Shown in pieces: positions 8,063 through 59,237 of a DNA stretch of 64,000 nt. A program made the position numbers and the translations under genes. The stretch comes from Candidatus Omnitrophota bacterium (GTDB taxonomy: Bacteria; Omnitrophota; Gorgyraeia; Zapsychrales; Fredricksoniimonadaceae). The number at the start of each line of letters is the position of its first letter. Position 1 is the first letter of the stretch. A model generated the notes under the pieces. The model saw only the letters and a program-made list of their open reading frames with translations, ran no database searches and had not been told where the DNA came from. The stretch lies in assembly GCA_903944345.1 (NCBI GenBank), contig CAJARJ010000001.1, positions 12,339 to 76,338 on the forward strand, read 5' to 3'.

Positions 8063-8185
8063 GACCTCATCCCACCTTCTATTAACCCAAATCACTAATA
8101 ATTATTTGATAAACATATAAAATATAACAAACTATATCCTGTATTATGTACTTTGGCAAGGATCGAGGAAACCCCGAATCCGAAT

Positions 8186-14633: not shown

Positions 14634-14751
14634 ATCCCTCCTTGACCCAAAGTCTCTCCCAGAATTATTTTTAAACAGCCCCCTTTAAAAATATCAAGTA
14701 ATAGCTTATACTTTAACCGGATTGGCAGGACTGTCAACTCTAAGGATATAT

Positions 14752-31831: not shown

Positions 31832-31847
31832 AAGCCTTTGCCTCCGT

Positions 31848-34106: not shown

Positions 34107-34109
34107 AAA

Positions 34110-35480: not shown

Positions 35481-35484
35481 AAGA

Positions 35485-36705: not shown

Positions 36706-36710
36706 AAATT

Positions 36711-40659
<3,949 letters not shown>

Positions 40660-40662
40660 AGA

Positions 40663-42162: not shown

Positions 42163-42169
42163 AGAAGTC

Positions 42170-42886: not shown

Positions 42887-42893
42887 AGGCCTC

Positions 42894-43103
42894 TCACTTG
42901 AAAAGCAGGTAGACCATCAATAAGGACATGACCGCAACCGCTTCGGCAAAAATAAAAGCCATGATCATCGCCATCAAAATCCGGGGCGAAGCAGAAGGAT
43001 TGCGTCCTACCGCAGAAACAGCGCCGTAACCAACGACTCCGATAACAGCAGCCGGCCCCAACGTACTTAACACCACAACCATGACAATGGTAATTTCTTT
43101 CAT
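42894..43103 (-). CDS. atpE: ATP synthase c subunit (proteolipid), H+-type
   Basis: Two-TM hairpin with the conserved carboxylate in IFAEAVAV; no Ser/Thr next to Glu, so not the Na+ motif. Confidence 0.9.
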   Translation of the reverse strand: MKEITIVMVVVLSTLGPAAVIGVVGYGAVSAVGRNPSASPRILMAMIMAFIFAEAVAVMSLLMVYLLFK

Positions 43104-43115
43104 ACTGCTCCCGGA

Positions 43116-43373
43116 CTAAGCGGGCTCCTCCATAACCAAAAGAGTGCCGTCGACAACCTGAGCCACTCCATGAGCGACAGGAAACGACTCCACAAGACTT
43201 CCTGCGGAAGTCAATGCCGGACGACGCAGAATAATTTCTCCGTGCACAAGACCACAAACAATATCCTGATGGGAGTCCATGACGGAAATGACACCACCAG
43301 TGCCGGGGAGGACGACTTCAACCGCCTCGTCGTCGAACACAACAGCCTGCGGTGTCAGAATACGAACCTTCAT
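43116..43373 (-). CDS. atpC: ATP synthase epsilon subunit, N-terminal beta-sandwich domain only (85 aa)
   Basis: MKVRILTPQAVVFDDEAVEVVLPGTGGVISVMDSHQD pattern typical of epsilon; lacks the C-terminal helical hairpin. Confidence 0.7.
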   Translation of the reverse strand: MKVRILTPQAVVFDDEAVEVVLPGTGGVISVMDSHQDIVCGLVHGEIILRRPALTSAGSLVESFPVAHGVAQVVDGTLLVMEEPA

Positions 43374-44167
43374 CCCTTGCCCGCAGGAGGAGCGCCTGCT
43401 GACGGGCCCTTGCGGTCAGCCCCGGTACCGGCAGCCGGAGTGTCGCCCGACGATCCTGACGCTCCGGCAACAGCGTTTAACTGCCTGAGCCAGACAAAAT
43501 AGAAACTTGCCCCCAAAATACCCAGAAAAAGCATAACGGCACCGACGAACTTGAAAATCGCTCCGGTGGAATAAGCCCGCGACTGGCTCATAAAACCACG
43601 GGCCAGATCCAGATCCGCACGAATTGACGCCAGAATATTAAGATGCTCGCGATAAGAAGAAATATGCTGTTCGGGATTGGCCGGAGGGAACCTTGCCGCT
43701 GACTCGATCTGGTCGAGCTTGAGCGTAATCTCTTTATACATGCCTTCAAAACGATCGGCATACTCTGTATTCTTGAGCTGTTTTCCTATCCGCTCCAGTT
43801 CGTGCCGAAGCGTTTCGATCTCATTAACCGGAACCGACCAGATGTCGCGCAACTCGATGTCCTGTTCAAAAGTCTCACCCGGTTTGAGCTCGAAATCACC
43901 CGACACAAAATAAGACCCCTGCTGACTATCATACACCAGCTGCAAATCACCTTTACCCAACACATCATCGGGCTTGACCTCTTTGGGCAAATACGCCTTG
44001 ATCGAAGCAATCTGCGCGTCTTCTTTAGAAGGGTTGGCAGCCATAACCTTGAGCACAATAGCCGCCCGCAGATCTCCCGGAAGACCGGTCAGAAGAAAGA
44101 GCGCTCCCGCAGACACAAAAAGGAGCCGCCACAATAGAATGCCACACGCATTATTCCTTGTACTCAT
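43370..44167 (-). CDS. Hypothetical membrane protein (N-terminal signal/TM, soluble domain, C-terminal TM, Gly/Ala/Ser/Pro-rich tail) encoded between the giant gene and atpC
   Basis: ORF with overlaps at both ends (17 nt with the giant gene, 4 nt with atpC); no family recognised. Confidence 0.5.
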   Translation of the reverse strand: MSTRNNACGILLWRLLFVSAGALFLLTGLPGDLRAAIVLKVMAANPSKEDAQIASIKAYLPKEVKPDDVLGKGDLQLVYDSQQGSYFVSGDFELKPGETFEQDIELRDIWSVPVNEIETLRHELERIGKQLKNTEYADRFEGMYKEITLKLDQIESAARFPPANPEQHISSYREHLNILASIRADLDLARGFMSQSRAYSTGAIFKFVGAVMLFLGILGASFYFVWLRQLNAVAGASGSSGDTPAAGTGADRKGPSAGAPPAGKG

Positions 44168-47100
44168 ACCATACCTGGGTTACCGGTTTGTTATTCATAT
44201 TCTCAAGAATTTTCTTGCTGACTTCCATGGCGGCCTTGAGTTCCTGGGTCTTGTTCTTGAGATAGGTCATATCTCCCTGGCGTTCCTGGGAAACATCAAG
44301 CATTTTACCGAGACTGACGCCACCCTCACCGGTTAAAGACTGGATCTGTTTGGCCATAGCTGTCAACTGTCCGAACAAAGGAGCAACCGCGGATTGCGCG
44401 GCATCCGCCGCCAGACCACCAGCTCCCTTGAAAGCGCCGGAACCCATGTCATTAATCACGGTTTCGATGGACGCAAACTGCTCGTTTAACTTGTTGACCG
44501 TGGTATTGATGCCGGAAATGCCCGATGTGGTTCCCATCAAGGCGGATACCTGGGAATAAACCTGATCCAGATCAGACATCGTGACCGTAATCGTCATGGC
44601 ATCCATAGTGCCCAACGTTGGCTCGGAACAGACAATAGTAAAGTCGCCACGCCCCCAGGACGAGTAGAAAAGAACCGGATACTGGTAAATTCCGGTTCCT
44701 GTCATCTCGGTCATCCGGGCGGAAGTAACTACCTGCAAATTTTGAGCATTGTAAACATCGATCACAGGCACCAGCCCGGAGCCGGCACGATAGCGTATGG
44801 TCAGCGTTTCGCCGGCTTTAACCGCGCTTTCGGTATTAAGAATTTCAGAACTCAACTCGCGCTGGACAGTTTCCTGCAACAGACTGATACGTTCAGGCAG
44901 TTCTGTCTGCGTCGAGAAAAGAATCTTGCGGGTTTCATTCTGCAGTTCCGTCTTGATGGACGCTATGTCTTTTGACACAACTTCTTTCATATCCTCGGAA
45001 GTGGCCGCAACCGTGGACTGAATATTGGACACCGCAGACATAAGTTGCTCGGTCGTTTCCGTGAAAAACTCGTACTGCATGATCTCTGAGCCGACATCAA
45101 TATTGGCCGCCGAAGTGTATTCACGTCCGCGATATTCAATAGTCAAAGTTGCCGGATACACCTTGCCCGCCTCGAAAGCGGTCTCAGCGAGAGTAAAATT
45201 ATACATACCTGTAGCTCCCGGAGCGGGCGAGGCCATACTGTTGCGCACAGTTTCTCCGTCAGGTTCGTAAATCTTGAACGTTGCCGTTCCCATATCGGAA
45301 CGCTCGGTTTCGTTGGTGCCGACCAGTTTCCCCTTGCGCTGAAGAGACCCGACCGCAGTCAACGAATCCGTTGCCGGAGAGAAGCTGTAGGTCAGGATAG
45401 ATTCCCATGTTACCTGGGCAGAAGCTGCATTTTCCAGATAAACAGTGACAACATAAGGCTCAACACCCTGCTTGGGCGGCGTCCAGGTGACACTGTTATC
45501 TATATACTCCTGCTTGGAGAAAAAGGTTGTATATGACCCGTAAGGATATTCTTCTGTTCTTGTAAGAGGAGAAGCCAAAGCCGTATCGGTCCAGCCGCTG
45601 GCCGGCTCGTTAACCGAAAAGTCTGTCAAATGCTGGTAAGTATCATAATCCATAACCTTGAAAACCGCTGTAGCGTAAACCAGCGCCAGATCGCTGTCGC
45701 TGGTGTCCATAGTGGTGTTGTCATCTACATCCGAAACCCTCACCCGGACATGTTCGGATTTGATGTCCGGCGTAGTCCAGTTGTAGGTTCCCGTATTGAC
45801 TGCGGTGCCAATAAAAGACCAGTTTAGGCCGTCAGTTGTATACTCCAGACGGACATTGCTTATTGTTCCCATGGTCTGCCACGTAATGGCATGCGTGGAA
45901 CGAGCCACAAGCTTCTCGCCACCATTAGGAGAAAGGATTCTGAAACCACCGCGAATACGCACATTCCCCTGGCTGGTGGCGGTGATCTGGCTGCGAACCC
46001 CATCAGTCAGACGGAACTTGATGGTGCGTCCGGTAATGGCATCCGCAGGCACAACCCAGTCATAACTTCCGGTATTGGCCAGATTGGTTTCAATAATACG
46101 GCGGGTGATAAAATTATCACTGGAATAATCCAGTGTAAGATTGGCAATAGATAACCCCGTCCATTCCCAAGTCACCGGGATGGTATCGGCCAGAACATAT
46201 TCATCGCCGGAGCCGGGAGTAAGGAAAGTCATGGTCGGCAAAGGATTGATTACAAACACATCATCCGAAACATCAAGAACGGCCGGACGGTTACCATCCA
46301 CAAGCCTTACAAGGCACTGGGTGGTTATATAATCTGGTACGGTCCAGCTATAAGATCCACTATTGGGAATACCGCCACGCACCAAGTACCAGGTGATCCC
46401 GTTGTCCGGCGAATAACTCAATAGCAGATTTTCAGACACCGTGCCCTCGGACTCCCAGCGAACAGGGCCACGGTCTCCCACCGACCAGACCTCACTGCCA
46501 TTAGGTGCCGTAATTGTGATCCCCGGAAGCGCTAGATTAAAAGCCGGTGAAGTTGCCGTAGTGGAAGGACGCGACTCGTCCATAATGCGCACCAGCGCCG
46601 TGCTAAAGACATTGTCGGGAATAGTCCAGGAATGTGAACCGGTATTATGCACTCCGGTGGCGATCTGTATCCAGGACGCGCCATTATCCACCGAATAGGA
46701 GAGGCGCAAATTGTTGGAAACACGCCCGCCATTATCTTCCCAGGTGATGTCATGTACGCTCCCCACACGCCAGACCTCGCCCCCCTCCGGATGAAGCATG
46801 GTAATCTGCGGTGCTGGAAGTATTGTAAAAGACGCATCCGACTTGTCCCAGACCGCGGAACGGTCAGCATCGGTGATGCGCACCCGCAAAGTGGCGCTGC
46901 GATCATCCGGCACCGTCCAGGCATAAGTTCCGGTGTTGGGCACACCCTGTGCAATCAGAACCACGTCGGAAACAAAATTGTCATCAGAATACTCAATTCT
47001 AAGATTATTGCTGATGGCGCCCAGGGGCTGCCAAACAATATTTTCCACATCACCCACCGAAACGATTTCCCCACCATTAGGCCAAGTTACAATAATCCTG

Positions 47101-50100
47101 GGCAGGGTAATGGCAAAAGTAAGATCCGAAGTGTCCGAAATCTGGGTCCGCAGGTTATCAGTCAACCTCAGGCGGACAGTATCAGACATATCATCCGGAA
47201 CAGTCCAAAGGTACTCCCCGGTATTGGGCGCACTGCCGGCAATGGTATGAACCGTAGCGAAGTTGTCGGTCGAATACTCCAGTTTGAGATCATTGCTAAC
47301 CGAGCCTACGGACTGCCAGGTGATGGGATACTGCATTCCGACCGGCCAAAGCTCTCCGCCGTTAGGCGAAGTTATAATTACTTTGGGCAGGGAAATCTCA
47401 AAAACCGCATCCGAAACATCAGTTGTGGCCGGACGGGTGGCATCAAAAATCTTGACCAAAGAGTTAGTAGAAAGACTATCGGGGATCATCCAGTAATAAA
47501 GGTCATTGTTGGCTACTCCGGTAGCAATGTTGTTCCAGGTGCTGCCGCCATTACTGGAATACTGCAAGGTAATATTGTCGCGCACAGCCCCGAAATCGGA
47601 ACCTTCCGAATACCAGCGAACTTCCTGGGTCGTTCCAACTGCCCACATTTCCCCGCCATTGGGCAGAACAAGGGTAATGGCAGGCGGCTTGATCGTAAAG
47701 TTGGCCGGCGAAGAAGACGTAACCGACGGATAAGACATGTCGGTAATCCGCACCCGCATCGTCTGGCTATTGGCATCGGCAACCGGCCCCCACAAGTAAT
47801 TGCCGGTATTCGACTGCCCGGTACGGAAAGTCGTCCACGTAGAACCGCCATCCGTTGAATACTCCAGCTTGAGGTTGGCGCTCAGACTTCCCACTGAAGT
47901 CCAGGTGACTGAATAATTTCCGGTCGCATACCAGGACTCGCCACCCACCGGAGAGGTCAGGGTCACTGTGGGCAGTTCAATTGCAAAAGGTGCCGGAGAA
48001 ATGCCCGCGGCCAACGCATCGTTCTGGTCTACAACCTTGATCCTGGCCGTTTCGGTTGGCTCATCCGGCACGCGCCAGGTAAAACTCCCCGTATTCGCCT
48101 GGTTAAATCCGGAAAGAGTCCAGGTCGCTCCATCATCCGTGGAATAGAAAATACTGATCTTGTTATAATCCGCACCGCTGCTATCCAGCTTGTGACCGTA
48201 AGTCCGCCAGCGAACGGTATAATCCGTCCCCATGGTGATCCGCTCGCCACCAACAGGCTGAATCAGCTCGATAGTCGTGTGCGCCAGCACCCTGAAAGCA
48301 ACGCTGGTGATCGTGACCTGGGCGCGCTGGGCATCGGTCAAACGCACGCGAACCGCAGAGCCCACGGCCCCTGGAGGAACCACCCAGGCATAAGTTCCAC
48401 TATTAGTCAAATGCTCGGCAATCAGGACAAAGTCGGTACCATTAAGACTATATTCAAGTTTAAGGTCATTTGATACGGTGCCGTCAACAGTCCAGGTGAT
48501 ATTGTTGGTATCGCCAACAACCCAGACCATATCCGCTACAGGACTGGTCAGAGTAAGAACGGGATCCACAATAGAAAATACCGGTGAAGTAAAAGAAACC
48601 TCCTGCTGGGTGCCGCGACCGGCAGGAATGCCCACCTCGGTCAATCGAACCATCATATTGGCCGAGATAATATCAGGGACCTGCCAGTTATAAGTTCCTA
48701 AGATATCGTCGTTATTCCCCGCTCCCTGAGGAGTTCCCACGGAAACCTGCGCGATTTCATGCACATCAGACTGGAAAGCATCATTTGAATATTCCAGCTT
48801 GATCTGCGAAGAAAAAATGAGCGAATTGGTCCGCCAGGAAATAGGCTTCGAGGCCCCGACACTCCAACGATCACCCAAAACCGGAGAAGAGAGGCTGAAG
48901 GCCGGTGTGGGCACAATTGAGAAAGCAGTATTGGAAAGATCCTGTATCCGATCATTGGACGGCGAAGAAATACGTACCAGCACGCTGTCGGCAAAAACAG
49001 CCGGAACGACCCACTCGTAGACACCATCATTGGGCGTGATCGCGCTGATCACGGTCCACGATGTCCCACCATTGGTAGAGTACTCGATCTTGACCACATC
49101 ATTAGGAATGGCTCCGGTGACATTCCAGGTGATATTAAACTGCCGGCCAGCTTCCAGGACTTCACCGCCATTGGGCGCGGTTACAGCCAAAGACAGCACC
49201 CGGAACGAAGCCGCACTGACATCCGCGACTGTCGGCAAATCTTCGCTGGAAATGCGCACATAACCCTGTTGACTGGGCGCGTCAGGCACAAGCCAGTTGT
49301 AGGAACCGGTATTGGACACATGCTCGGCAATAAGCGCCCAGGTATTGGCATTGTCCGCAGAATACTGGAGTTTGACCAGCCCCGATCCGCCTTCAACCTG
49401 CAAAGCCTGGGAGTTCCAGGTCACCGGATACGTCTGTCCAACCACAATAGTCTCGCCGCCGTTGGGGGCAGTGAGATTGAGGAACGCGGTGATGTAATCC
49501 AGGGAAATATCATCGAGAATGGCCGCCTGCTGGCCTTCCGAGAAAAAGAGCGCTCGGTACTGGAACCACTGATCGCTGTCCGCATCCGTATGCAGAGGGT
49601 TGATATTCTCCCCGCCCGAAGGATCCAGATAATACGTCTGCGCCCCCATAAAAGTAACACCGACACTTTCTATTGACGGGGTACGGAAAGATGACGGCTC
49701 CGAATGCAGATAAGCGCGGAAATAAAAGTTCCCCTGCGGATAAATATCCTGGAATTCGGTCAGATGCGCGTTGATCTCGGCAGACGTATTCGTCTGGGAA
49801 TAGCCACCTGTGACATCGTCCCACTGACTGCCGTCCCACCAGTGCCAGGTATAGCCATTGGGCGACACCTGATAACGAACAGTCGTTCCATAAGGCGTCA
49901 GCAGAATATCCTGCATTTGCACCAGGCTCTTCTCGTAATAAAACGTGCCGTTGACCGGTTGAATAACCGGATTGGACGAAGCATAAACGGCAATAGCGCC
50001 AACGGTCTCGGGAGTAAGCACATCAAACAAAAGGGGTTCATTTTCTACCTGTTTATGGCTTTGGTAATGAGCCAGAACCTCACGAGCCAAAAGAACACGA

Positions 50101-53100
50101 TCATAAATGCGAACCCCGTCCAGATTGCCTACAAACGGCATAGCAGCCGAAGCCTCCCGGCCCAACTGCAAATTGTCATTGTTAGTCAACATGGTCGATG
50201 TTTCCTGGGTTGAGGTGTACACCAGATTGCCGTTGACATAAATTTTGACAGTATCCACGGCCTCGTCAAAAGTGGCCACCACATGCTGCACGAGCCCCTG
50301 GGTGAGAACCGCACCGGTCGCGTGAAGTTTCTGGGTGTTGTTACGGAAAGAAAAGGCCAAAGTATCGGAATACTGATAGAGTCCGTAATTGAGACGGGAA
50401 TGCAGGTCACTGCCCTTGGCCAGAATAAGATGGTTACCCTCAATGGTCAGCGGCTGAACCCAGGCCTCCAGCGAAACCTGTCCGGTCACATCAAGCGTGG
50501 CGCTGTCGGCGGCATACCCGTAAGCCGTGGTTCCGTTAAAGGTCAGGGCCTTGGCACCCGGAAAACCCGTCAGATCCGTTGAGGACCAGGAAGTATTGAC
50601 CAAAGAAATCCGGTTATTGTTGACGGTCGCATCGGCCGTGGAAGTGCCCACCCCTTCATCAAAATGCCAGACGGCCAAAGGAGCGCCATCGATGTAATCG
50701 AAGGGACGCGCCAGCCAACCGGCCCCTCCGGAAAGGGTTACATTGTGTCCGTACAGGCTGCCATCCACTGCTGTTGAGCCGGTTGCGTCGTTAAAACGCC
50801 AGAGGCCCAGCAGCCCCGGCTCGGTGCCGGAAAGAGCACGGTAACGGCGCTCGAAAAGATCACCAACGGCCTGCTGCTCTCCCCAGACGCGCGCCTCGTC
50901 AATAAGACCCACCAGTCCGCCGCCAATCTGCAGCGGATTGGCATTGGCTGATACCGTTCCGGTCAAAGCCGAAGAAGCTTTCTCCTGGCCGTCAACAAAC
51001 AGCTTCAAACGGGCACCATCATAAGTCAAGGCCGCATGGGTAAGGGTTCCGGTCGGATAATCTCCGGTTGAAACACTGGTGCCATTGACAAACCCGGTCA
51101 GCCCCAGAGTGGTCAGCTTAAGTCCGAAAGAGCCGCTCTTGACCAGAATAGTCTGATCAGCGGGGACATCTTCGTTTTCTTCATCTCCCCAGACAGGCAC
51201 AATAACCCAGGCATTACTTAACCCGAACACCTCGTCATCCGAGAGGGCCCGGTTATAAATAGTTACCTCGTCAATGATGCCGTCAAAATAACGCGCAGCC
51301 AGGTCTGTGCTGCCTATAGCCAGGTTCTTGGACTGTACGGCCGGAAGATTGTTTAACGTGATCGACATCCCGTTGACCGACTGACCATTGATATACAGCT
51401 TGATCGAGGTTCCATCAAGCACCGCAGCGACATGGTTCCAGGTATTGCCAGCCACCGCCAGTCCCGAAGCAGACACAAAATCGTTACTGAAATTAGTAAA
51501 AGCCAGCCTCCCGTTATTTTGTACGGCCAGAACAAAAGAGTCCCGGCTGCTTCTGTTGCCCCAGCTAATGACCCCGTTCCAGGTGGTCTGAGGAAGCGTA
51601 CGCGGATAAATCCAGGCCCCCACCGACATTTCACTACCCACAGGCAAGCTTATAGTGTCCGTACGGGTCAAATTCGAGGTTCCGGTAAAGTCCAGTGCGG
51701 AACCGGAAAAGCCGGGAACCCACAAGGGCGAACCCATATCGTTAAAATCAATGGAACCCGCGAAATCTTCGGTATTATACCCGGCGTTCTCGTCCATTTT
51801 CCACCAATTGGTCAAACCGTCAACGGGCATGGCTGGCAAAGAGGTGTCTTGTTCGACCTGCGTCCCCGGATTGCCATAATACATAATAACGGTCTTGGTG
51901 CTGCGCCCGGGAACATAGGGCACCTGCACCATAAAACGAGCCTGGGCCGGTGAAGAGGACAGAATGCGATGCGGCAAAGCGGTCCCGTCAGTATCCACAA
52001 AGCGAATATCGCCATAGTCGGAGCGCATCTTGCCATCGGCATAGGCAATGTCAAACACATACAACTTGTTTTCTGCATCTGCCAACCCCGAATTGTCGAA
52101 AGTCAGGACGCGGCGATGGGCAAAACCCGGCAACCATTGCGAACGGACGACCAGGGGCGTTTCCTGCGCACCGAAAGTGACCGGCAAAGTCAGGCCCAAG
52201 GCACCTCCTTCGGTATCACCGCGGTAAACTTTCCAATTGTCAGTAAAGGCATTATAGCCTCCGCGACCGTTATGGATAATGTGCGGAACCAAGGTCGTAT
52301 TGGGGGCAAAGGTAGAGGTGTAAAGAAGTGTCCATGGATCTGAGCCGGTTGTCCGATAATAGTATTTGGCTCCCTGGGTGGGTTGAAGGGTGATCTTGAT
52401 GTCATAGGAAGTGCCAAATGTGTAATTGGTGCTTACCCGTCCACGGCTGGTGCCATTTTCATAAATATAGATAGAAGCATTGTTTTCGAAATAAATAGCG
52501 TATGGCATCTGTCCATAGCTCTGATCTGTGCCAGGTATTTTCCAGCCGATCATGGTGGCTTCGTTGGTACTGGCCTGCCTGAAGGAGGCTTCGAAAGTTG
52601 TGCCCTCGTTATAGCGCTGAAAGGTCTGTTTGGTATTTATATAAGCGTCTGACCAGTTATTATTGCCCAGCAGTCGAACCTCACCGTTCTCAAAATAAAC
52701 ACGAGAGGAGTAATTATAATTTGTGGTCATATAGGAATCAAAGTCATCGAGATACAGATAATCGCTCAACGAGTCGTCACTCTCACTGTTGGCCGCGGCA
52801 TTGCCGTAATAGAGATAAAGCTGTTTAATGCTATCCGCTGGAAGATCGGGAACCTCAAGATAAATAGTCGCCTTGCTGGCACCTAAACTGCGGATGCGGT
52901 AGCGAAGTTTATGCCGCATGTCCTTTTCCCAGAAGCGAATATCGGAGAAATCCGGTTTCATGCCCGGCTCATAATCAATCTCCATGGTCAGAACCAGATA
53001 CTCGACAGCCTCCTGCCCCGCATTATTGATATTAATTTCCTTACGATAAAGCCATCCACCAGGCCAATAATTAAGCGTATGTTCGAAACTGGATTCGACT

Positions 53101-56100
53101 GTAAGGGCGTCCGCAGGAGCGGGCGCGGCAGCAGCCACAGCCATGGCTTCTGGCACAGGCAAACTCAAACCGCTGGCATTTCGTCCGGTTTCGGGAAATG
53201 TCTTGGTCATGGTTGCACTTACACTTGAAACGGCAGACGCATCAGAACGGCCATAATAGAGGTAAATGGTTTCGACACTGTTCGCGGGCACTGCCGGCAG
53301 TTTGACCCAATAAACAGCGGTACGGTTTGCATAATCGAAGCTGACCTGATTATAGGACAAAATAGTGGTGTTATCGCTGTCGACAAAACGCACATCGGCC
53401 CCGTCATTGCGGCAGCGTTCCCAGAAACTGTCCACCGCCGCGGTCAAGGTAACCTTAACCTGATAATCAGTCAGCTCTCCGCCCAAAGAATTGTCGACCG
53501 TGATCTCGCTGCGATGCGACCATCCGGACAAGGCCGGAGAAGTCTCATTGTCCTCGACAGCGGTAAAATAATAACGCACCACATCACTGCCGGCGGAAGA
53601 AAAAGAGGTCCGGAAAAGCTGGGACACCTCGGCATCGGAAAGGTCTTTGTTGTAGATAGCCACTTCGTCCATGGCGCCCCACAAATAATTGTAACTGCCT
53701 GAGGGAGAATACCCAAGCCAGGTGTTATTACTTCCGGGAGAAAGGTTCCAGCTGCCGCTAAAAGTCTGCTTGAGCTCGCCGTCGATATATAACTTGCTGG
53801 TTGTCGAATTGGTTGTATGGGTGATCATGTGCCATTCGCCGGTTGAAATGCCCCAGCTGGTGCGCGGCGCCGTTGTTTCCGCGCCATTCACACTCAAAAT
53901 AAACTGGTTGCGGCTGTTGATCATGGTGCAATACCCCGGATTGCCGCCCCAGGAGGTGCTGGCCACCGGAATGCGCCAATTGCCATCAATATTGACAGGC
54001 AAATTAATCCAGTAGGAGAACGTGACCGGCAAACTCATTTTAAGCGAAGCAGCTCCGCCAAGATTGACATACTGATTGGAGCCGTTAAAACTCAGAGCCT
54101 TGCCGAACTTGCCGTTAACCCATACCGGATTGTTAACGATAACACCATGATTGCCCTGCCCGGAATAATCGTTAAGGGTTGATCCTGCTCCTTCGTCGAA
54201 ACGGTAATAGGCCACCAGATTGGCCATGGCCGGAATAAAATCTTCATCCGGATTGCTGGCGCTTTCGGCATCCGGCTTGCCATACTTCAAATAAATACTG
54301 GTTTTCTGCCCGGCCGGCAGAGAGAAAACCTTGACCATGGCTTCGGCCCGACGGGCGGCGTAATCGAAGTACCCCCCGTTGGAGGTTATGTTGTACCCCA
54401 ACAGATTTCCGGCGGAATCAACAAAACGGATGTCGGCGCCGTCGCTTTTGACATGTTCCCAGAAATGGGGGTTGCTGTCATTAAGCTCGATGGCAAGTCC
54501 GGCATTGACCAGATCCGCACCACTATTATTTTCCACAACAATGCGCTGGGTGTAGGCATAGTCTTCCAGCTGTTTGGCCAGACGCGCGACCCCGTCTCTG
54601 ACCTCAATCTGCGGATCATAAGAATACTCGCTGTCGGTTTCCATATCATTAAGCAAAGTTTGCGCCCCTCCCGGCCCCAGCCAGACACCCCAGGCCCCGG
54701 GCTGTCCGTTATTGTCAGGCGCGGTGCGCAACTGAAAACGGATATCACTGCCGGCCGGTATGGTGCGCGTCCAGGAAATGCCGGTCAGACGGTTAAGAGC
54801 CTGTCCGGAATTGTAAGGAGTAGAAATCAGCTCCTGATCAAACGGATAGCGGAAAAAATTAAAACTGATATCGCGCAATTGCGGCAGGTTTTGAGGGTCT
54901 TCGGTCAACAAAGACACCTGGTATTGCAAATACTGATCCCCGGGACGCACCACCGGGAAAGTGCCGGAAAGATCACTGTTTTTGGTGACCGGATTGATAT
55001 TCTCCCATTTAGACACCCCGGTCATGGCCGAGTCAAGAGCAGTTCGCACCTTGAGCTCGATCACTCCGGAGGCATTGTCACTCCAGTTGACTGTATTATA
55101 GGCAGAATTGCGCCCTACATTCTTGACAGCCGAAGTATACTGCCCCTGCTGATATAAACGGTACTTAAAGACATCGTAAAAATGTCCGTTGCCACCGCGT
55201 GTGGCATACAAAAAGTCGCCCCTGCCGGGATAGATCAGATTAGCCCCGCCGTAGAACACTGAAGGTGACGGATTAAGCTCCTGCCAGGTGTTCTGGGATA
55301 TGGAGTAGCGCAAAAACATATTGGTTCCCCAGGTATAGCCATAGTTCCCAGTAGGAATAAAATACAGATAATCGCCGCGACCAGGATAAATGAGCGATGG
55401 AGTATTCGTATCCGAGCTCATCAGAGAAATCGGAAGCTCCGCCAAAGCGGTCCAGACATTGTTATTGATTGAATACCGGTAAAACTCCGCGCCACCGTTA
55501 CCACGGGTGGCATACAAATAATTACCAAACCCCGGATAAGCCAAGCTGCCGCCAAAATTGACCGTATTGGGCACAGGGGCACCACTGGCCCACTGGTTGG
55601 TGGCAATATCATAAATCCAGAAATCGGTGCGCGAATCGCCGCGCAGGCAATACACCTTGGTGGCGGTGGCGGCAATATCGTGCCCGCTGCCAAAATTACC
55701 GCCAGGAGGAGTCAGTGCCGTCCACTGATTGAGCGTCACCGAATAACGGGCAAAATCGGTACGATTGCGCCCGCGGGTAGTGTAAAGATAATCGCCAGTT
55801 CCGCTATAGGTTAAAGCCGCCCCCCACTCATCCCAGGCCCAGGCCAGATTGGCATAAGGCGAATTGAGGGTAACAAAATTACGTGTACTCAGACTGTATT
55901 TCCAGAAGCCCTGATGCCCGCCGAAATAAAGCAGATCCTCATCGGGACCAGAACCGAATACCCCGTAATTGTAAATGCTCCAGGTACTGGGATGCCCCAC
56001 TGGCTGATCCCAGTCATTGGCGCTCATGGAATAACGCGCCAGAAGACCAAAAGCCGAATCAAAGTAATAAATAAAGTCGCCGCTGCCCGGGTAAAACATG

Positions 56101-58907
56101 TCGCCGTCATTGCTGGTATAGGCGTAATTACGGGAAGACGGCGCCAAAGCAGTCCAGGCATTGTTGGCAATCGAATAGGACGCAAACCGGTTTTGATAGC
56201 TAAGCCAGTAAATATTGTCGCCGCTGCCCGGATAAAGCAAGGCCTGAGCGTTATGACCGCCGGCCGGAGCCGAAGCTAAAGTGGTCCAGGCATTCGCGCC
56301 GATATTGTAACGGTAAAAATTACTGGCCGCATTACCCACTTTCCAATAAAGCATATTGTTGGCTTGATCCACAGCAAAAGTGTTACCCCGTCCTTGATTA
56401 TTGATTATTGCATAAGGCAAATCTACCAACCCAGTCCATGTGTTGGAAGAAATCGTGTATTTCATGAACTTGCGACCACTCTCGGTCGTAGGATGCAGGC
56501 CATACCCGGCAGCGGCAAACAGCTGATCTCCGGCTCCTTCAAATTGAGATTCTAGTACAATTGGCAAAGGCGAATCCGCCATGGCCGCCCAGACATTGTT
56601 GACAAAATCATAGCGCCACAAGTTTGTTTCGCCCCGGCCTTCCAGAACATAGACATAATTTCCGGTGCCCGGATAAGTGGCCTTGCTGCCCCAGCCCAGC
56701 ATAAAAGGCGCCACAACAAACCCGGTCCATTTCTTTTGGGAAAGAGAATATTTCCAGATTGCAGTGGAGTCATTGCCGTAAAACATGTACACCGTGTCAG
56801 CATCCACAAGAACCGTGCTGCCATACGCCGGAGACTGGATATCGCGGTAACGCAAATTCCAGGAGTTGGTGGAAATAGTGTAAACACCCATGTCCCGTTC
56901 GCCGGCACGCGCGATATAAACCTTGTCTCCCTGAGCGACCAACGCCGCATAAGCATCGCCGCACCATAACGGGGTGGAGGGTAAAACTTCCCAGGTATTG
57001 CTTGCGATATCGTAGCGGGCAAAAGAATAAGCCGTGCCAAAAAAAGCGTAAATGTAATTGCCGCTGCCGGGCCAAACCAATTCACTTTTATCATAAAACA
57101 TAAACGGCGCATCAGCCATGCGCGTCCAAGTATTATTGGTTGTCTGATAGCGCCAGAATTTGCGGTTGTAAGCTCCGTTGGAATAACCGGTGGCGGCAAA
57201 AACATAATTTCCGGCTCCCGGCGCATACGGATAAACCATGGCTCCGCCATAATGCACATACTCCGGGGAAGGCAAATCGGCCACACCAGTATCGTCCCAG
57301 ACATTGGATGAAGGGTCATAGCGCCAGAAAGTGGCCGTCTGGTTACCACGAAAACCGTAAATGTAGGTGCCGTCACTGGCCAGGGAGCCGCCATAATAAA
57401 TAGGAGAGGGCACTGAGGCCAGCGTGATCCAGGTGTTATCCGCCGGATTATACCGGGCAAAACCGGAATTAAGATTACCCTGCTGGGCATAGACACGTCC
57501 GCCGTGATGCACCAACGCATGCCCTTGATACTGGGCAGCCCAGGGCATGGCCGTCAACGCTACCCAGTTATTGTTAACCAGAGAATAACGCGCAAACTCG
57601 GCCGAATTGTGCCCGCTGGACGCATAAATATAATTGGCGCCGTCCGAAATCATGCGCGCGTACGTCTGTAACCAGGTGTTGGCCCGCGGCCCCATGAGCT
57701 CGTCCCATTTGGCAGCCACCGGGTCGAAATGCAGGGGCCGGACATAATTGCCCATTGACAAGAAATTGAGGCGACCGCCAACGCCAGGATCGTAAAAAAT
57801 GCCGCGATAGGGGTAGATCGGAATTGAGGCATTGGCCGTTCCCGAATAAAGATCATCCCACTGGGCGGTAACATAATTGTAGCGGGCAAACTGTCCCAGG
57901 CGATCATCCTCCCGCCAGGCATAAAGATAGTTGCCTCCCGGATGCTGCAAATTACCCACTCCAACCGGAGAGGAAGTAAGCCCTACCCACTGATTACCCG
58001 AGATGGAATAACGCGACAAGGTTGTGCCGGTACTGGAAAACATGGCCAGCAAATCCGAACCCGAGCCGGTATAAACCAGACCCGCTCCCCGAGTCACAGC
58101 CACCGGAGTGTTAGCCATATTGGCCCACGTATTGGAAGCAATCGTATAAGCAAAAGCGCGCGTGGTAGCTGCCCCGGCCAGACAGTAAACTTTTGTTCCG
58201 TCTGAAGCCATGGCCGCACCATAACCGATAAAAGTGGAGGCATCCGCCAGACGAGTCCAGGTATCGGTGGAGATGGAATATTTATAAAACTGTTTGGTGT
58301 TGGCCCCGCGGGTGACATAAAGAAAATCCCCGCCGGTAGTCGGATAGGCAAAAGCTGCCCCGGTTCCGATGGGCACAGGCATGTCGGCCAGAAACGTCCA
58401 GGTTTCTGCAGCTATGTCGTAACGCCCCAGCTTGTTGTTGCGCCAAATGGCGTAAATGTAATTGCCGGCCCGAACCCAGGGTGACCACCAGGACAAGGAC
58501 GGCATTTCCGGTAAAGAGCTCCAGTCGCCCGGACGCAAACCAAAGGGGTCTTCGGAAGTAGTCTGCAGGGTCAGATAGGCATCGGCACCGGTACCATCAA
58601 CCTCAACCAGATACGGAATGCCGGAAGCAAAATCAGCGTCCGTAGTGTCGGTTAAAGCCAGCAGCTGGGGAACTCCGGTAAGAACACCGTTAAAGGAATT
58701 GTCAATATAACTATCTTTGGAATAAAAAAGCGACCAGCCTGTTTTGTTGGCCGGATGCAGAGCCAGACCCGCAAGAGACGCTCCGCCCGTCCAGTTGGTC
58801 TGGTGAAAAACATCGCTTTCCTGGGCAGGCAGAGGGCGGTCATTGCAAAAAAGCATAGCCCCCAGAAGAAGCGGAAGCAGCAGTCGGCGAAAATATATCA
58901 CAAACAA
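44151..58907 (-). CDS. Giant (4918 aa) secreted multi-domain surface/adhesin-like protein: signal peptide, about 23 Kelch-like propeller blades, DUF2341-like and LamG/ConA-like domains, about 13 Ig-like repeats, 600-aa C-terminal region
   Basis: Single uninterrupted 14,757-nt ORF; N-terminal signal MFVIYFRRLLLPLLLGAMLF; repeated Y.YSI..N.W..LA..P blades; DUF2341-like modules ending IYLYYG; LamG-like modules (LVAYYRFDEGAGSTLNDYSGQGNHG...); about 95-aa repeats (L/I)TSPNGGE.W..G....ITW...G...N.LKLEYStDgG.TW..IA....NTG.Y.W.VPD. Confidence 0.9.
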   Translation of the reverse strand: MFVIYFRRLLLPLLLGAMLFCNDRPLPAQESDVFHQTNWTGGASLAGLALHPANKTGWSLFYSKDSYIDNSFNGVLTGVPQLLALTDTTDADFASGIPYLVEVDGTGADAYLTLQTTSEDPFGLRPGDWSSLPEMPSLSWWSPWVRAGNYIYAIWRNNKLGRYDIAAETWTFLADMPVPIGTGAAFAYPTTGGDFLYVTRGANTKQFYKYSISTDTWTRLADASTFIGYGAAMASDGTKVYCLAGAATTRAFAYTIASNTWANMANTPVAVTRGAGLVYTGSGSDLLAMFSSTGTTLSRYSISGNQWVGLTSSPVGVGNLQHPGGNYLYAWREDDRLGQFARYNYVTAQWDDLYSGTANASIPIYPYRGIFYDPGVGGRLNFLSMGNYVRPLHFDPVAAKWDELMGPRANTWLQTYARMISDGANYIYASSGHNSAEFARYSLVNNNWVALTAMPWAAQYQGHALVHHGGRVYAQQGNLNSGFARYNPADNTWITLASVPSPIYYGGSLASDGTYIYGFRGNQTATFWRYDPSSNVWDDTGVADLPSPEYVHYGGAMVYPYAPGAGNYVFAATGYSNGAYNRKFWRYQTTNNTWTRMADAPFMFYDKSELVWPGSGNYIYAFFGTAYSFARYDIASNTWEVLPSTPLWCGDAYAALVAQGDKVYIARAGERDMGVYTISTNSWNLRYRDIQSPAYGSTVLVDADTVYMFYGNDSTAIWKYSLSQKKWTGFVVAPFMLGWGSKATYPGTGNYVYVLEGRGETNLWRYDFVNNVWAAMADSPLPIVLESQFEGAGDQLFAAAGYGLHPTTESGRKFMKYTISSNTWTGLVDLPYAIINNQGRGNTFAVDQANNMLYWKVGNAASNFYRYNIGANAWTTLASAPAGGHNAQALLYPGSGDNIYWLSYQNRFASYSIANNAWTALAPSSRNYAYTSNDGDMFYPGSGDFIYYFDSAFGLLARYSMSANDWDQPVGHPSTWSIYNYGVFGSGPDEDLLYFGGHQGFWKYSLSTRNFVTLNSPYANLAWAWDEWGAALTYSGTGDYLYTTRGRNRTDFARYSVTLNQWTALTPPGGNFGSGHDIAATATKVYCLRGDSRTDFWIYDIATNQWASGAPVPNTVNFGGSLAYPGFGNYLYATRGNGGAEFYRYSINNNVWTALAELPISLMSSDTNTPSLIYPGRGDYLYFIPTGNYGYTWGTNMFLRYSISQNTWQELNPSPSVFYGGANLIYPGRGDFLYATRGGNGHFYDVFKYRLYQQGQYTSAVKNVGRNSAYNTVNWSDNASGVIELKVRTALDSAMTGVSKWENINPVTKNSDLSGTFPVVRPGDQYLQYQVSLLTEDPQNLPQLRDISFNFFRYPFDQELISTPYNSGQALNRLTGISWTRTIPAGSDIRFQLRTAPDNNGQPGAWGVWLGPGGAQTLLNDMETDSEYSYDPQIEVRDGVARLAKQLEDYAYTQRIVVENNSGADLVNAGLAIELNDSNPHFWEHVKSDGADIRFVDSAGNLLGYNITSNGGYFDYAARRAEAMVKVFSLPAGQKTSIYLKYGKPDAESASNPDEDFIPAMANLVAYYRFDEGAGSTLNDYSGQGNHGVIVNNPVWVNGKFGKALSFNGSNQYVNLGGAASLKMSLPVTFSYWINLPVNIDGNWRIPVASTSWGGNPGYCTMINSRNQFILSVNGAETTAPRTSWGISTGEWHMITHTTNSTTSKLYIDGELKQTFSGSWNLSPGSNNTWLGYSPSGSYNYLWGAMDEVAIYNKDLSDAEVSQLFRTSFSSAGSDVVRYYFTAVEDNETSPALSGWSHRSEITVDNSLGGELTDYQVKVTLTAAVDSFWERCRNDGADVRFVDSDNTTILSYNQVSFDYANRTAVYWVKLPAVPANSVETIYLYYGRSDASAVSSVSATMTKTFPETGRNASGLSLPVPEAMAVAAAAPAPADALTVESSFEHTLNYWPGGWLYRKEININNAGQEAVEYLVLTMEIDYEPGMKPDFSDIRFWEKDMRHKLRYRIRSLGASKATIYLEVPDLPADSIKQLYLYYGNAAANSESDDSLSDYLYLDDFDSYMTTNYNYSSRVYFENGEVRLLGNNNWSDAYINTKQTFQRYNEGTTFEASFRQASTNEATMIGWKIPGTDQSYGQMPYAIYFENNASIYIYENGTSRGRVSTNYTFGTSYDIKITLQPTQGAKYYYRTTGSDPWTLLYTSTFAPNTTLVPHIIHNGRGGYNAFTDNWKVYRGDTEGGALGLTLPVTFGAQETPLVVRSQWLPGFAHRRVLTFDNSGLADAENKLYVFDIAYADGKMRSDYGDIRFVDTDGTALPHRILSSSPAQARFMVQVPYVPGRSTKTVIMYYGNPGTQVEQDTSLPAMPVDGLTNWWKMDENAGYNTEDFAGSIDFNDMGSPLWVPGFSGSALDFTGTSNLTRTDTISLPVGSEMSVGAWIYPRTLPQTTWNGVISWGNRSSRDSFVLAVQNNGRLAFTNFSNDFVSASGLAVAGNTWNHVAAVLDGTSIKLYINGQSVNGMSITLNNLPAVQSKNLAIGSTDLAARYFDGIIDEVTIYNRALSDDEVFGLSNAWVIVPVWGDEENEDVPADQTILVKSGSFGLKLTTLGLTGFVNGTSVSTGDYPTGTLTHAALTYDGARLKLFVDGQEKASSALTGTVSANANPLQIGGGLVGLIDEARVWGEQQAVGDLFERRYRALSGTEPGLLGLWRFNDATGSTAVDGSLYGHNVTLSGGAGWLARPFDYIDGAPLAVWHFDEGVGTSTADATVNNNRISLVNTSWSSTDLTGFPGAKALTFNGTTAYGYAADSATLDVTGQVSLEAWVQPLTIEGNHLILAKGSDLHSRLNYGLYQYSDTLAFSFRNNTQKLHATGAVLTQGLVQHVVATFDEAVDTVKIYVNGNLVYTSTQETSTMLTNNDNLQLGREASAAMPFVGNLDGVRIYDRVLLAREVLAHYQSHKQVENEPLLFDVLTPETVGAIAVYASSNPVIQPVNGTFYYEKSLVQMQDILLTPYGTTVRYQVSPNGYTWHWWDGSQWDDVTGGYSQTNTSAEINAHLTEFQDIYPQGNFYFRAYLHSEPSSFRTPSIESVGVTFMGAQTYYLDPSGGENINPLHTDADSDQWFQYRALFFSEGQQAAILDDISLDYITAFLNLTAPNGGETIVVGQTYPVTWNSQALQVEGGSGLVKLQYSADNANTWALIAEHVSNTGSYNWLVPDAPSQQGYVRISSEDLPTVADVSAASFRVLSLAVTAPNGGEVLEAGRQFNITWNVTGAIPNDVVKIEYSTNGGTSWTVISAITPNDGVYEWVVPAVFADSVLVRISSPSNDRIQDLSNTAFSIVPTPAFSLSSPVLGDRWSVGASKPISWRTNSLIFSSQIKLEYSNDAFQSDVHEIAQVSVGTPQGAGNNDDILGTYNWQVPDIISANMMVRLTEVGIPAGRGTQQEVSFTSPVFSIVDPVLTLTSPVADMVWVVGDTNNITWTVDGTVSNDLKLEYSLNGTDFVLIAEHLTNSGTYAWVVPPGAVGSAVRVRLTDAQRAQVTITSVAFRVLAHTTIELIQPVGGERITMGTDYTVRWRTYGHKLDSSGADYNKISIFYSTDDGATWTLSGFNQANTGSFTWRVPDEPTETARIKVVDQNDALAAGISPAPFAIELPTVTLTSPVGGESWYATGNYSVTWTSVGSLSANLKLEYSTDGGSTWTTFRTGQSNTGNYLWGPVADANSQTMRVRITDMSYPSVTSSSPANFTIKPPAITLVLPNGGEMWAVGTTQEVRWYSEGSDFGAVRDNITLQYSSNGGSTWNNIATGVANNDLYYWMIPDSLSTNSLVKIFDATRPATTDVSDAVFEISLPKVIITSPNGGELWPVGMQYPITWQSVGSVSNDLKLEYSTDNFATVHTIAGSAPNTGEYLWTVPDDMSDTVRLRLTDNLRTQISDTSDLTFAITLPRIIVTWPNGGEIVSVGDVENIVWQPLGAISNNLRIEYSDDNFVSDVVLIAQGVPNTGTYAWTVPDDRSATLRVRITDADRSAVWDKSDASFTILPAPQITMLHPEGGEVWRVGSVHDITWEDNGGRVSNNLRLSYSVDNGASWIQIATGVHNTGSHSWTIPDNVFSTALVRIMDESRPSTTATSPAFNLALPGITITAPNGSEVWSVGDRGPVRWESEGTVSENLLLSYSPDNGITWYLVRGGIPNSGSYSWTVPDYITTQCLVRLVDGNRPAVLDVSDDVFVINPLPTMTFLTPGSGDEYVLADTIPVTWEWTGLSIANLTLDYSSDNFITRRIIETNLANTGSYDWVVPADAITGRTIKFRLTDGVRSQITATSQGNVRIRGGFRILSPNGGEKLVARSTHAITWQTMGTISNVRLEYTTDGLNWSFIGTAVNTGTYNWTTPDIKSEHVRVRVSDVDDNTTMDTSDSDLALVYATAVFKVMDYDTYQHLTDFSVNEPASGWTDTALASPLTRTEEYPYGSYTTFFSKQEYIDNSVTWTPPKQGVEPYVVTVYLENAASAQVTWESILTYSFSPATDSLTAVGSLQRKGKLVGTNETERSDMGTATFKIYEPDGETVRNSMASPAPGATGMYNFTLAETAFEAGKVYPATLTIEYRGREYTSAANIDVGSEIMQYEFFTETTEQLMSAVSNIQSTVAATSEDMKEVVSKDIASIKTELQNETRKILFSTQTELPERISLLQETVQRELSSEILNTESAVKAGETLTIRYRAGSGLVPVIDVYNAQNLQVVTSARMTEMTGTGIYQYPVLFYSSWGRGDFTIVCSEPTLGTMDAMTITVTMSDLDQVYSQVSALMGTTSGISGINTTVNKLNEQFASIETVINDMGSGAFKGAGGLAADAAQSAVAPLFGQLTAMAKQIQSLTGEGGVSLGKMLDVSQERQGDMTYLKNKTQELKAAMEVSKKILENMNNKPVTQVWYEYKE
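45700..49580 (-). repeat. Array of about 13 Ig-like / Kre9-KNH-like beta-sandwich repeats (about 95 aa) in the giant protein
   Basis: PNGGE(x)W/ITW/LEYS.D.G.TW/NTG.Y.W.VPD pattern repeated; amino-acid repeats diverged, not identical at DNA level; boundaries approximate. Confidence 0.65.
50300..54500 (-). repeat. Alternating DUF2341-like (4 copies) and LamG/ConA-like (4 copies) modules in the giant protein
   Basis: Four units ending (I/V)YLYYG/MYYGNPG with D(I/V)RF(V/W)D cores; four units with the W..DEG.G....D.SG motif and a V.IYN.ALSD.EV tail; boundaries approximate. Confidence 0.55.
55150..58600 (-). repeat. Coding repeat array: about 23 Kelch/galactose-oxidase-like beta-propeller blades (about 50 aa each) in the giant protein
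   Basis: Recurring ...F.RY.I..NTW..LA.MP... units; boundaries approximate. Confidence 0.6.
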
Positions 58908-58931: not shown

Positions 58932-59237
58932 TTATTGTCCACGCTGGGCCTGTGCGGCAAGCAACTGCTGCTGTAACTGTTCTACCCGGCGAGCCATCGC
59001 CTGGTAGGACACGCGGTCGGCACTGTATTTCTGTTCCAGATCGGCGGCTATCTTTTTATGTTCCTCCGCAAGCTTCTGTTTGAATTCCGCGCGGCAAGAC
59101 GAAGCCTCCCTCTGAAAACGGGCGGTTTCGGTGCCGGCACGAAAAACGAAAAACCCAAGAACAAGGATAACACCCAGACACAGCAATTGCCAGACGCCCG
59201 GGCGGGAACAGCATCCGTTATTTTTTGTCGTCGTCAT
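58932..59237 (-). CDS. Small membrane-anchored coiled-coil protein (101 aa)
   Basis: Single TM WQLLCLGVILVLGFFVF followed by a Gln/Ala/Glu-rich helix; sits between the TPR genes and the giant gene. Confidence 0.45.
   Translation of the reverse strand: MTTTKNNGCCSRPGVWQLLCLGVILVLGFFVFRAGTETARFQREASSCRAEFKQKLAEEHKKIAADLEQKYSADRVSYQAMARRVEQLQQQLLAAQAQRGQ

Follow-up and report, generated by a model that had tools for sequence, protein, structure and literature searches.

A predicted giant adhesin-like protein and its putative membrane-anchored partner in a secretion-like gene cluster of Omnitrophota

Omnitrophota are widespread, ultra-small and uncultured bacteria that are thought to be predators or parasites. 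A conserved locus in which pilus or secretion genes accompany an F-type ATPase has been proposed as a key 'symbiosis' trait of the phylum, without an assigned extracellular effector. Within a 64,000-nt stretch of a Candidatus Omnitrophota genome (GenBank assembly GCA_903944345.1, contig CAJARJ010000001.1, positions 12,339 to 76,338; hereafter the window), a cluster of this kind contains a giant open reading frame (ORF) of almost 15 kb, which raises the question of whether so large a gene is real and what its product might do in the midst of secretion genes. An earlier note, made from the letters alone, had suggested a surface fiber or adhesin that is a dedicated substrate of the surrounding machine.

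Here, we establish that the giant gene is real and intact, describe a conserved C-terminal module that defines its family, and identify a small membrane protein, p265, with which the giant protein is predicted to act. At a probability of roughly 0.55, we propose that the giant is a Sec-exported, adhesin-like fiber protein that serves as a cargo or displayed component of the surrounding type II secretion system (T2SS)-like machine and is held at the cytoplasmic membrane via p265.

The ORF occupies 44151..58907 on the minus strand (14,757 nt; 4918 codons plus stop). It starts with TTG, 8–9 nt 3' of a GGGGGAG, and public gene calls begin at a GTG two codons after the TTG (codon 3), giving 4916 amino acids (aa). 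The single uninterrupted 14.7-kb frame of 4918 aa that the earlier note described, naming no strand, is borne out on the minus strand; by arithmetic, 4918 random codons would escape a stop, at ~3/64 per codon, with a probability of ~e^-236. A pseudogene or assembly artifact, in which a chimeric or collapsed repeat region mimics one ORF, might be suspected from the metagenomic source, the long repeat-rich sequence and the many database homologs that are fragmentary. Against this, three assemblies contain contigs with 100% identity to the window across 8145, 8145 and 5469 nt of the giant gene; for its 3' 6.6 kb, coverage comes only from the contig of the window itself, from the gene calls of 4916 aa and from orthologs. 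The internal repeats are at most 50% identical to each other as protein (100-aa tiles against the whole protein), Tandem Repeats Finder reported no tandem DNA repeats in the gene, and its longest internal DNA repeats are 66 nt at 61–73% identity, with no copy above 87%; because the copies have diverged and tandem DNA repeats are absent, collapse of repeats is unlikely. In a relative at 82% nucleotide and 88% amino acid identity, the independent ortholog (locus L071) likewise encodes 4916 aa, and comparison with it over 2723 codons yielded a dN/dS of 0.07, no stops and one gap column. The stop codons that the earlier note had thought might betray a pseudogene were not found, and with full-length orthologs in at least 16 clusters an artifact is extremely improbable. 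The giant gene is real, intact and under purifying selection, and is neither a pseudogene nor a collapsed assembly.

The part of the protein that defines its family lies at the C-terminus (aa 4421–4918; 44154..45647, minus). In the window protein this module ends ...YLKNKTQELKAAME..NKPVTQVWYEYKE, and the conserved end across the family is ...YLKNKTQELKAAME..ANKPVTQTWYEYK; the signature as a whole is a ~340–500-aa C-terminal module ending ...YLKNKT.ELKA....ANKP..Q.W[YF]E[YF][KR], which the window giant fits. Conservation is highest in the last ~340 aa, where 51 columns are invariant among eight diverse sequences. Searching with the last 519 aa returned 21 homologs at 34–67% identity, mostly fragments, all of them Omnitrophota- or Omnitrophica-labeled or unnamed metagenome proteins. 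A scan of one genome per GTDB species, using an 8-sequence alignment of the last 340 aa as the query, located the module at 58 loci, nearly all in Omnitrophota, the phylum to which the earlier note had rightly pointed for orthologs; the exceptions in labeling are several third-party assemblies called 'uncultured Planctomycetales' and one contig in a Neptuniibacter bin.

An exhaustive profile search gave 14,985 matches at E ≤ 0.001, a number inflated since the profile contained an immunoglobulin (Ig)-like repeat, and we therefore re-screened the best 146 representatives with the last 340 aa alone. The module is present in 48 of these best 146 (852–6941 aa). Sixteen of the 48, at 3994–5230 aa, also share the N-terminal domain, Kelch and DUF2341/LamG regions described below, which means that full-length orthologs form at least 16 clusters when grouped at 50% identity. 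Orthologs of the giant are colinear with it at 41–48% identity. The N-terminal parts vary by species: some loci carry Kelch, DUF2341/LamG and Ig repeats as in the window, and others share only the C-terminal module. Taken together, sequence comparison indicates that the C-terminal module defines an Omnitrophota-specific family with variable N-terminal modules. At locus L035 (1-1590), the giant has another large ORF, carrying the same Ig-like repeats, immediately upstream; loci of this type thus include tandem large proteins.

Structural prediction of the C-terminal ~500 aa with AF2 (pLDDT 75) yielded three beta-sandwiches, one 80-residue helix and a helical tail. The helical, coiled-coil-like character noted earlier for this region is thus present in the long helix and the tail, but the region is more than a coiled-coil tail, being a conserved module with three beta-sandwiches. 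A profile search of PDB sequences with the C-terminal alignment matched designed coiled coils only.

Immediately downstream, the gene for p265 (265 aa; 43370..44167, minus) overlaps the 3' end of the giant gene by 17 nt. Its product is predicted to contain a signal peptide, a small beta-sandwich, three helices, a transmembrane (TM) helix (aa ~199–228) and a disordered tail, the fold being modeled at pLDDT 81. It has no Pfam or NCBIfam match, and a Foldseek search of the PDB with the model gave none below E 0.07; all 23 of its database homologs are from Omnitrophota or unnamed. The pairing of the two genes is highly conserved: a p265 homolog sits directly downstream of the giant in 51 of the 54 GTDB loci whose sequence extends 1 kb or more beyond it. 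Moreover, the two are fused in frame in 7 of the 58 GTDB loci and in 10 of the 48 module-bearing database representatives, one of which is a 4564-aa full-length ortholog. At the junction, '...ANEPVxQTWYEY[GR]S' runs directly into 'VVLKAIxINPS...', the mature N-terminus of the p265 family, and this point coincides exactly with the predicted signal-peptidase site of the window p265 (LRAA|IVLKVMAANPS). Gene fusions are standard evidence for two proteins acting together, and the in-frame fusions argue that the giant and p265 do so. They also imply a topology, in which the C-terminus of the giant would lie on the periplasmic side of a helix spanning the cytoplasmic membrane. We conclude from the fusions that the giant is predicted to act with a membrane anchor and to be tethered at the cytoplasmic membrane at least transiently; the p265 tether may be permanent or may be released.

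The N-terminal regions are dominated by repeated modules of binding type. A signal peptide (aa 1–~28; 58824..58907, minus) has RR in its n-region, the h-region LLLPLLLGAMLF and a possible cleavage site after PAQ. The only hydrophobic segment of the protein is aa 1–21 (MFVIYFRRLLLPLLLGAMLFC); no TM-like stretch was found beyond it in the giant, and the orthologs also carry N-terminal signal peptides, in agreement with the Sec-type signal peptide recognized earlier. Export by the Tat pathway, considered for the motif 'FRRLLL', was rejected as the RR is unconserved among orthologs, and a lipoprotein signal at Cys21 was rejected as residues −3 to −1 (MLF) are unlike a lipobox. A conserved N-terminal domain follows (aa 29–160; 58428..58823, minus), with the motif F.Q.DW.GG.S...HP.NK..W and no Pfam match, which is present in the 16 full-length representatives. 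Next come 23 Kelch-like beta-propeller blades (aa 161–1246; 55170..58427, minus), as counted with a hidden Markov model (HMM) derived from the protein itself and matched by Pfam Kelch_6, 3, 1, 4 and 2 (Kelch_6, 105 bits versus a cutoff of 25.3), and then a post-propeller region (aa 1247–1488; 54444..55169, minus) that is conserved in orthologs.

The central block (aa 1489–2945; 50073..54443, minus) is composed of four Pfam DUF2341 stretches (PF10102; aa 1489–1576, 1835–1900, ~1951–2045 and 2297–2355; 165.8 bits versus a gathering threshold of 23.4) and four Laminin_G_3 stretches (PF13385; aa 1608–1760, 2410–2560, 2610–2676, which is partial, and 2791–2945; 237 bits versus 27.6). With D for DUF2341 and L for LamG, their order is D-L-D-D-[221 aa without a Pfam match]-D-L-L(partial)-L, the unmatched stretch lying at aa 2046–2296 and given as 221 aa. 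Over aa 2744–2952 (window 50073-50675), the protein also matches the NCBIfam model for TafC, a haloarchaeal Tat-fimbriae subunit, at 94 bits versus a cutoff of 410; since this match falls on the fourth LamG region and far under the cutoff, we set it aside as probably domain-level similarity. A further region (aa 2946–3120; 49548..50072, minus) is colinear with orthologs and opens the widely conserved C-terminal half. It joins aa 1247–1488 and 2046–2296 as the three stretches of the giant for which the Pfam scan gave no match, candidate places for the jelly-roll-like segment of the earlier note.

Beyond it, a self-derived HMM delineated 13 full and 2 partial Ig-like repeats of ~95 aa each (aa ~3121–4420; 45648..49547, minus), matched by Kre9_KNH (68.8 bits versus 24.6) and also by Reelin_subrepeat-B; the Asp-box SxDxGx[ST]W occurs in strict form in 4 copies and in loose form in 8. 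The Kelch, LamG, DUF2341 and Kre9_KNH matches all lie above their Pfam gathering thresholds. The architecture read from the letters alone, with ~23 Kelch-like blades, four DUF2341 and four LamG modules and ~13 tandem Ig-like repeats, therefore holds in its counts, except that the DUF2341 and LamG modules are interleaved without the strict alternation described.

These features suggest a route by which the giant could act. Sec would export the protein, whose C-terminal module would then dock on p265 in the periplasm; the TM helix of p265 would anchor the complex in the cytoplasmic membrane, adjacent to the secretion platform. From there the N-terminal ~4400 residues would be carried outside by the secretin and pseudopilus, and the LamG, DUF2341 and Kelch modules would bind glycans or proteins on the surface of a host or prey cell. 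In such an arrangement the ~13 Ig-like repeats would act as a spacer of ~50 nm, estimated at ~4 nm per domain. The adhesin or surface fiber proposed in the earlier note is in keeping with the LamG, DUF2341, Kelch and Ig-like stalk regions and with published views of large Omnitrophota ORFs, and it stays a prediction. Its companion proposal, a dedicated secretion substrate, agrees with the position inside the secretion cluster but needs amending, as a C-terminus partnered or fused with membrane-anchored p265 is not that of a simple free substrate.

The genes beside p265 bear on whether such a tether lasts. In 31 of 48 loci, p265 is followed by a gene for a secreted Peptidase_MA_2 protein with an HExxH motif (noted at L005:9229-10065, L007:2711-3505 and 37 other loci), whose product may process the giant or p265. 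It is possible, if unlikely, that the giant is a freely released T2SS exoprotein, for which p265 would be a membrane-bound chaperone or targeting adaptor that holds the C-terminus until hand-over, with the protease freeing the giant where the two are fused. The p265 gene adjoins and overlaps the 3' end of the giant gene, a layout as in substrate-chaperone pairs (PMC4713064), and the T2SS cargo VesB starts with a C-terminal TM tether and is later processed (PMC6219818). The peptidase gene follows p265 in all 6 fused loci with enough sequence and in 25 of 42 split ones, but this association is not statistically distinct between the two groups, and the window carries no Peptidase_MA_2 gene. Neither is there homology to CpaB, LipB or GlyGly-CTERM models, p265 matching nothing in NCBIfam or Pfam, and the part that the family conserves is the tether end, which suggests a lasting structural role.

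The link to secretion is drawn from the neighborhood of the giant. From 63152 down to 31415 all genes lie on the minus strand with gaps of at most 30 nt, and the giant is placed between gspC/D-like genes and gspE/F/L/M/pseudopilin genes, as the earlier assignment to a secretion-system cluster had it. Upstream are genes for a weakly GspC-like bitopic protein of 203 aa (62541..63152, minus), a secretin with two Secretin_N domains and a Secretin domain (60763..62511, minus), and two TPR/coiled-coil proteins of 272 and 240 aa (59218..60749, minus) that weakly resemble the Tgl/PilW secretin-associated TPR proteins; scanning metagenomes with the 272-aa protein yielded one weak locus. Directly upstream of the giant lies the gene for p101, a small bitopic coiled-coil protein (101 aa; 58932..59237, minus) with a counterpart in orthologous loci. 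Downstream of p265 and the ATPase genes, the type II secretion-like genes together span 31415..38390 (minus): GspE with an MshEN domain (36711-38390), GspF (35485-36705), a PilM-PilN fusion with GspL-like architecture (34110-35480), a GspM-like protein (33570-34106), GspI/H-like (33191-33589), GspJ-like (32653-33228) and GspK-like (31848-32756) pseudopilins, and GspG (within 31415-32197).

GspG meets its equivalog cutoff (TIGR01710, 146.5 versus 88.85). Its 260-aa ORF matches pseudopilins from aa ~129 (MSFRRFRRGFTLVEIML) and overlaps the GspK-like gene in its upstream part; the true start is probably internal to this ORF. T2SS and type IV pilus (T4P) models score alike on the core components and below their cutoffs (GspE 558.8 versus PilB 557.7; for the secretin, PilQ 234.5 versus GspD 223.3), and GspF reaches 311 against a cutoff of 424; because GspD, E and F fit both kinds of model equally and below cutoff, we call the system type II secretion-like. 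Further matches are also sub-threshold (GspM 24.7 versus 60, GspI 32 versus 44, GspK 50.8 versus 130, GspC 19.6 versus 101.6).

This arrangement is conserved elsewhere in Omnitrophota on both sides of the giant. Downstream, the series giant, p265, ATPase, GspE, GspF and PilMN is kept; among loci with enough sequence, 35 of 44 have ATPase alpha and 29 of 37 have GspE. Upstream, four other contigs share the order AAA ATPase, GspC-like, secretin, 1–3 TPR proteins, small bitopic protein and giant, their giants measuring 4439–4936 aa with the same Pfam content.

The minor pseudopilin genes of this array would allow a different attachment point, in which the giant would be a PilY1-like adhesin on the pseudopilus or a T4P-like filament, its C-terminal module docking on the GspH/I/J/K-like proteins and extension of the filament presenting the binding modules. 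The extreme C-terminus, TQTWYEYK, is a highly conserved, beta-strand-like aromatic motif that could suit such docking, and large DUF2341 proteins of archaeal T4P loci have been proposed as PilY-like tip adhesins (PMC4858521). We regard this as doubtful: the giant shows no match to the Neisseria_PilC/PilY1 propeller domain, copies of the giant and p265 occur away from pilin genes, and in many species the conserved C-terminus is joined to a TM-anchored protein, which does not sit easily with a place on a filament tip.

Several points weigh against a tethered adhesin that is exported by the surrounding machine. That the giant may be a T2SS substrate is suggested by synteny only; T2SS cargo has no sequence signature. 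Its secretion, surface location and binding are predicted properties, and no catalytic or known receptor-binding site was identified in the giant. If the giant were anchored permanently in the cytoplasmic membrane and yet displayed outside an outer membrane, its chain would have to lie within the secretin or next to it, an arrangement for which we know of no precedent. In L051, one locus with a visible gene start, the upstream genes do not include a secretin. At eight loci p265 is present and ATPase genes are missing downstream, and a further two genomes account for two loci apiece; going by the isolate names that loci share, the family occurs twice in each of four genomes. Second copies of the giant and p265 lie away from ATPase and T2SS genes at L026, L039, L040, L044, L046, L052, L055 and L060, which indicates that the tight functional unit is the giant with p265, and not necessarily the giant with the T2SS. 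Finally, the best Foldseek match of the C-terminal model in the PDB, itself weak, is SlaB (8qox_B, E 4.6e-8), the others being generic beta-sandwich matches.

The SlaB match, to a protein that also consists of beta-sandwiches followed by a long helix and a membrane anchor, raises the prospect of a structural envelope component in place of a host-binding adhesin: a coat or S-layer-like stalk with a membrane anchor, comparable to the one that SlaB provides for SlaA in Sulfolobus. The lone 80-residue helix suggests oligomerization, the fusions supply a TM anchor, and Velamenicoccus is described as a 'coated coccus' (PMC10066038). Such a coat seems improbable, however, given that the N-terminal modules vary strongly while the anchor end is conserved, as would be expected of a binding protein facing changing targets and not of a lattice, and given that LamG, DUF2341 and Kelch are binding-type modules. 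We continue to favor the tethered, adhesin-like cargo.

The cluster also contains F-type ATPase genes, which the earlier account of the secretion cluster had left out. They occupy 38387..43373 (minus) and are arranged unusually, as epsilon (43116-43373), c (42894-43103), b/delta fusion (42170-42886), alpha (40663-42162), gamma (39796-40659) and beta (38387-39787), inside the secretion-like array, where the stop codon of beta overlaps the start of gspE; no gene for subunit a was found among the window ORFs scanned. Both alpha and beta score above the cutoffs of the canonical NCBIfam F0F1 equivalog models (atpA 536 ≥ 484, PRK13343 560.6 ≥ 554, atpD 565 ≥ 463) and below those of the Mycoplasma gliding proteins MMOB1660/MMOB1670 (alpha 428 < 600, beta 442 < 850) and of MSC_0619/0618 (alpha 347 < 520, beta 396 < 570); their best PDB matches are ordinary F1. 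The cluster may be the cell's only ATP synthase, standing beside secretion genes by history, or may be a specialized motor.

In the gliding machinery of Mycoplasma mobile, the giant surface proteins Gli349 and Gli521 are driven by an F1-like ATPase (as cited in PMC10066038). The window resembles it in encoding a predicted surface protein of several thousand residues together with F1-type alpha and beta genes, and differs in the failed MMOB1660/MMOB1670 cutoffs, in the presence of c, b/delta, gamma and epsilon, and in belonging to a diderm with a secretin. It is a long shot that the giant, p265, the F-type ATPase (with no subunit-a gene in the cluster) and the T2SS-like pseudopilus are parts of a single mechanochemical apparatus with which the cell attaches to hosts, moves on them or attacks them. 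Just as speculatively, the 4918-aa protein would then be a membrane-tethered extracellular 'leg' receiving force from the ATPase and/or the pseudopilus via p265; if true, this would be an independently evolved diderm analogue of the Mycoplasma mobile machine.

Other features of these loci are recorded here. The MshEN domain of the GspE-like ATPase carries a cyclic-di-GMP-binding motif (NF053729, 51 bits versus a cutoff of 38), and the cluster of L006 contains an inserted gene for a response-regulator GGDEF protein, which together hint at c-di-GMP control of the machine. Y1_Tnp genes, of the IS200/IS605-type tyrosine transposase family, lie just upstream of the giant ortholog at L067:15547-16533, L068:6950-7936, L069:6693-7643 and L070:7385-8362, and another is inside the cluster at L006:3754-4389; a radical SAM gene and genes of no assigned function are also inserted upstream of the giant in L067 and L068. 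In two Omnitrophota genomes, parts of a diversity-generating retroelement stand directly upstream of the second giant and p265 copy (L044:2-3541 and L046:221-3715), comprising a reverse transcriptase and an FGE-sulfatase/C-type-lectin-fold protein with a Reelin-like Ig repeat, with bAvd also in L044; L007 has a bAvd gene within its ATPase cluster. No reverse transcriptase or diversity-generating retroelement was found among the window ORFs scanned. Elsewhere in the window are further large, poorly annotated ORFs of 1065 aa (4898-8095, minus; no Pfam match), 795 aa with DUF7790 (8186-10573, minus), 1111 aa with a weak PRTase-CE match only (20655-23990, minus) and 523 aa (14722-16293, plus; no match).

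A large exported protein in the middle of the locus across the phylum makes the giant family a candidate for the extracellular effector that the 'symbiosis' locus lacks. Its variable, binding-type front end is what would be expected of a part that meets changing host surfaces, and its conserved back end is tied to a small membrane anchor by gene fusions. Host attachment and the role of the ATPase-secretion cluster can be probed through three parts of this system: the contact predicted between the C-terminal module and p265, the ...WYEY/GS junction, and the lectin-like modules. Annotators also gain a way to recognize these genes, which are now called 'hypothetical' and are usually fragmented in assemblies. 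Earlier work had outlined the ATPase/pilus locus of Omnitrophota and large ORFs of adhesin-like type (PMC10066038). The main-text passages of the papers cited here do not report the conserved C-terminal module, p265 and its fusions to the giant, or the fixed place of the two between secretin and ATPase.

The closest published counterparts come from the same phylum. Seymour et al. 2023 (PMC10066038) describe in their main text 'symbiotic' F-type ATPase/type-4a pilus loci in all Omnitrophota classes and, treated apart from these, giant ORFs of more than 20 kb, some with Laminin_G_3, as possible cell-cell adhesins. The window shares with those loci the phylum and the F-type ATPase genes beside pilus or secretion genes, but its 14,757-nt gene is shorter than their giant ORFs, and neither a large protein between secretin and ATPase nor a conserved C-terminal module or 265-aa partner is mentioned in that main text. 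The same text groups the Omnitrophota alpha subunit with Mycoplasma type 2/3 by phylogeny, whereas alpha and beta of the window pass canonical F0F1 cutoffs. West-Roberts et al. 2023 (bioRxiv 10.1101/2023.11.21.568195) report, in the passages drawn on here, Omnitrophota proteins of more than 30,000 aa with many TM regions, mostly with SecA-DEAD, after T2SS-like loci that include rcpC and a Rotamase_2 gene, with pilZ downstream. Very large secreted or surface proteins of Omnitrophota beside gspD/E/F-like genes are common to both cases, and adhesion to prey is proposed there; the window protein, by contrast, is 4918 aa long and has a single signal peptide, with neither a TM segment nor a match to SecA, and Kelch, DUF2341, laminin and ATP synthase are unmentioned in those passages. 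Kelch, DUF2341, secretin and laminin are likewise unmentioned in the corresponding parts of a 2026 preprint on complete Omnitrophota genomes.

Outside the phylum, T2SS cargo held at the cytoplasmic membrane, ahead of its passage through the secretin or following it, includes VesB, with its GlyGly-CTERM C-terminal TM tether (PMC6219818), and CpaA and LipA of Acinetobacter, with the adjacent membrane-bound chaperones CpaB and LipB (PMC4713064). The giant resembles them in being putatively held there by a C-terminal TM segment or the membrane-anchored product of an adjacent gene. It differs in showing no sequence relationship, in being 10–20 times larger and in having no rhombosortase in view; for the GlyGly-CTERM sorting domain, NCBIfam gave no match with p265 and only the weak TafC match with the giant. 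Of the PilY1/Neisseria_PilC type of beta-propeller there is no trace among the Pfam matches of the giant, whose propellers are Kelch-type and N-terminal, and of LapA-like RTX/type I giant adhesins it lacks a HemolysinCabind match, its neighbors being T2SS-like and ATPase genes. Large DUF2341 proteins in T4P loci have been proposed as adhesins, with functions given as hypothetical, in passages on archaea (Makarova et al. 2016, PMC4858521) and Patescibacteria (PMC11809585); these are likewise large, associated with type IV filament machinery and found in small or host-dependent cells, but they belong to other phyla and have another architecture, and neither the C-terminal module nor a p265 partner is reported in those passages. 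The giant fits a general kind, that of a large adhesin-like protein encoded with a machine of the type IV filament family in a host-dependent bacterium.

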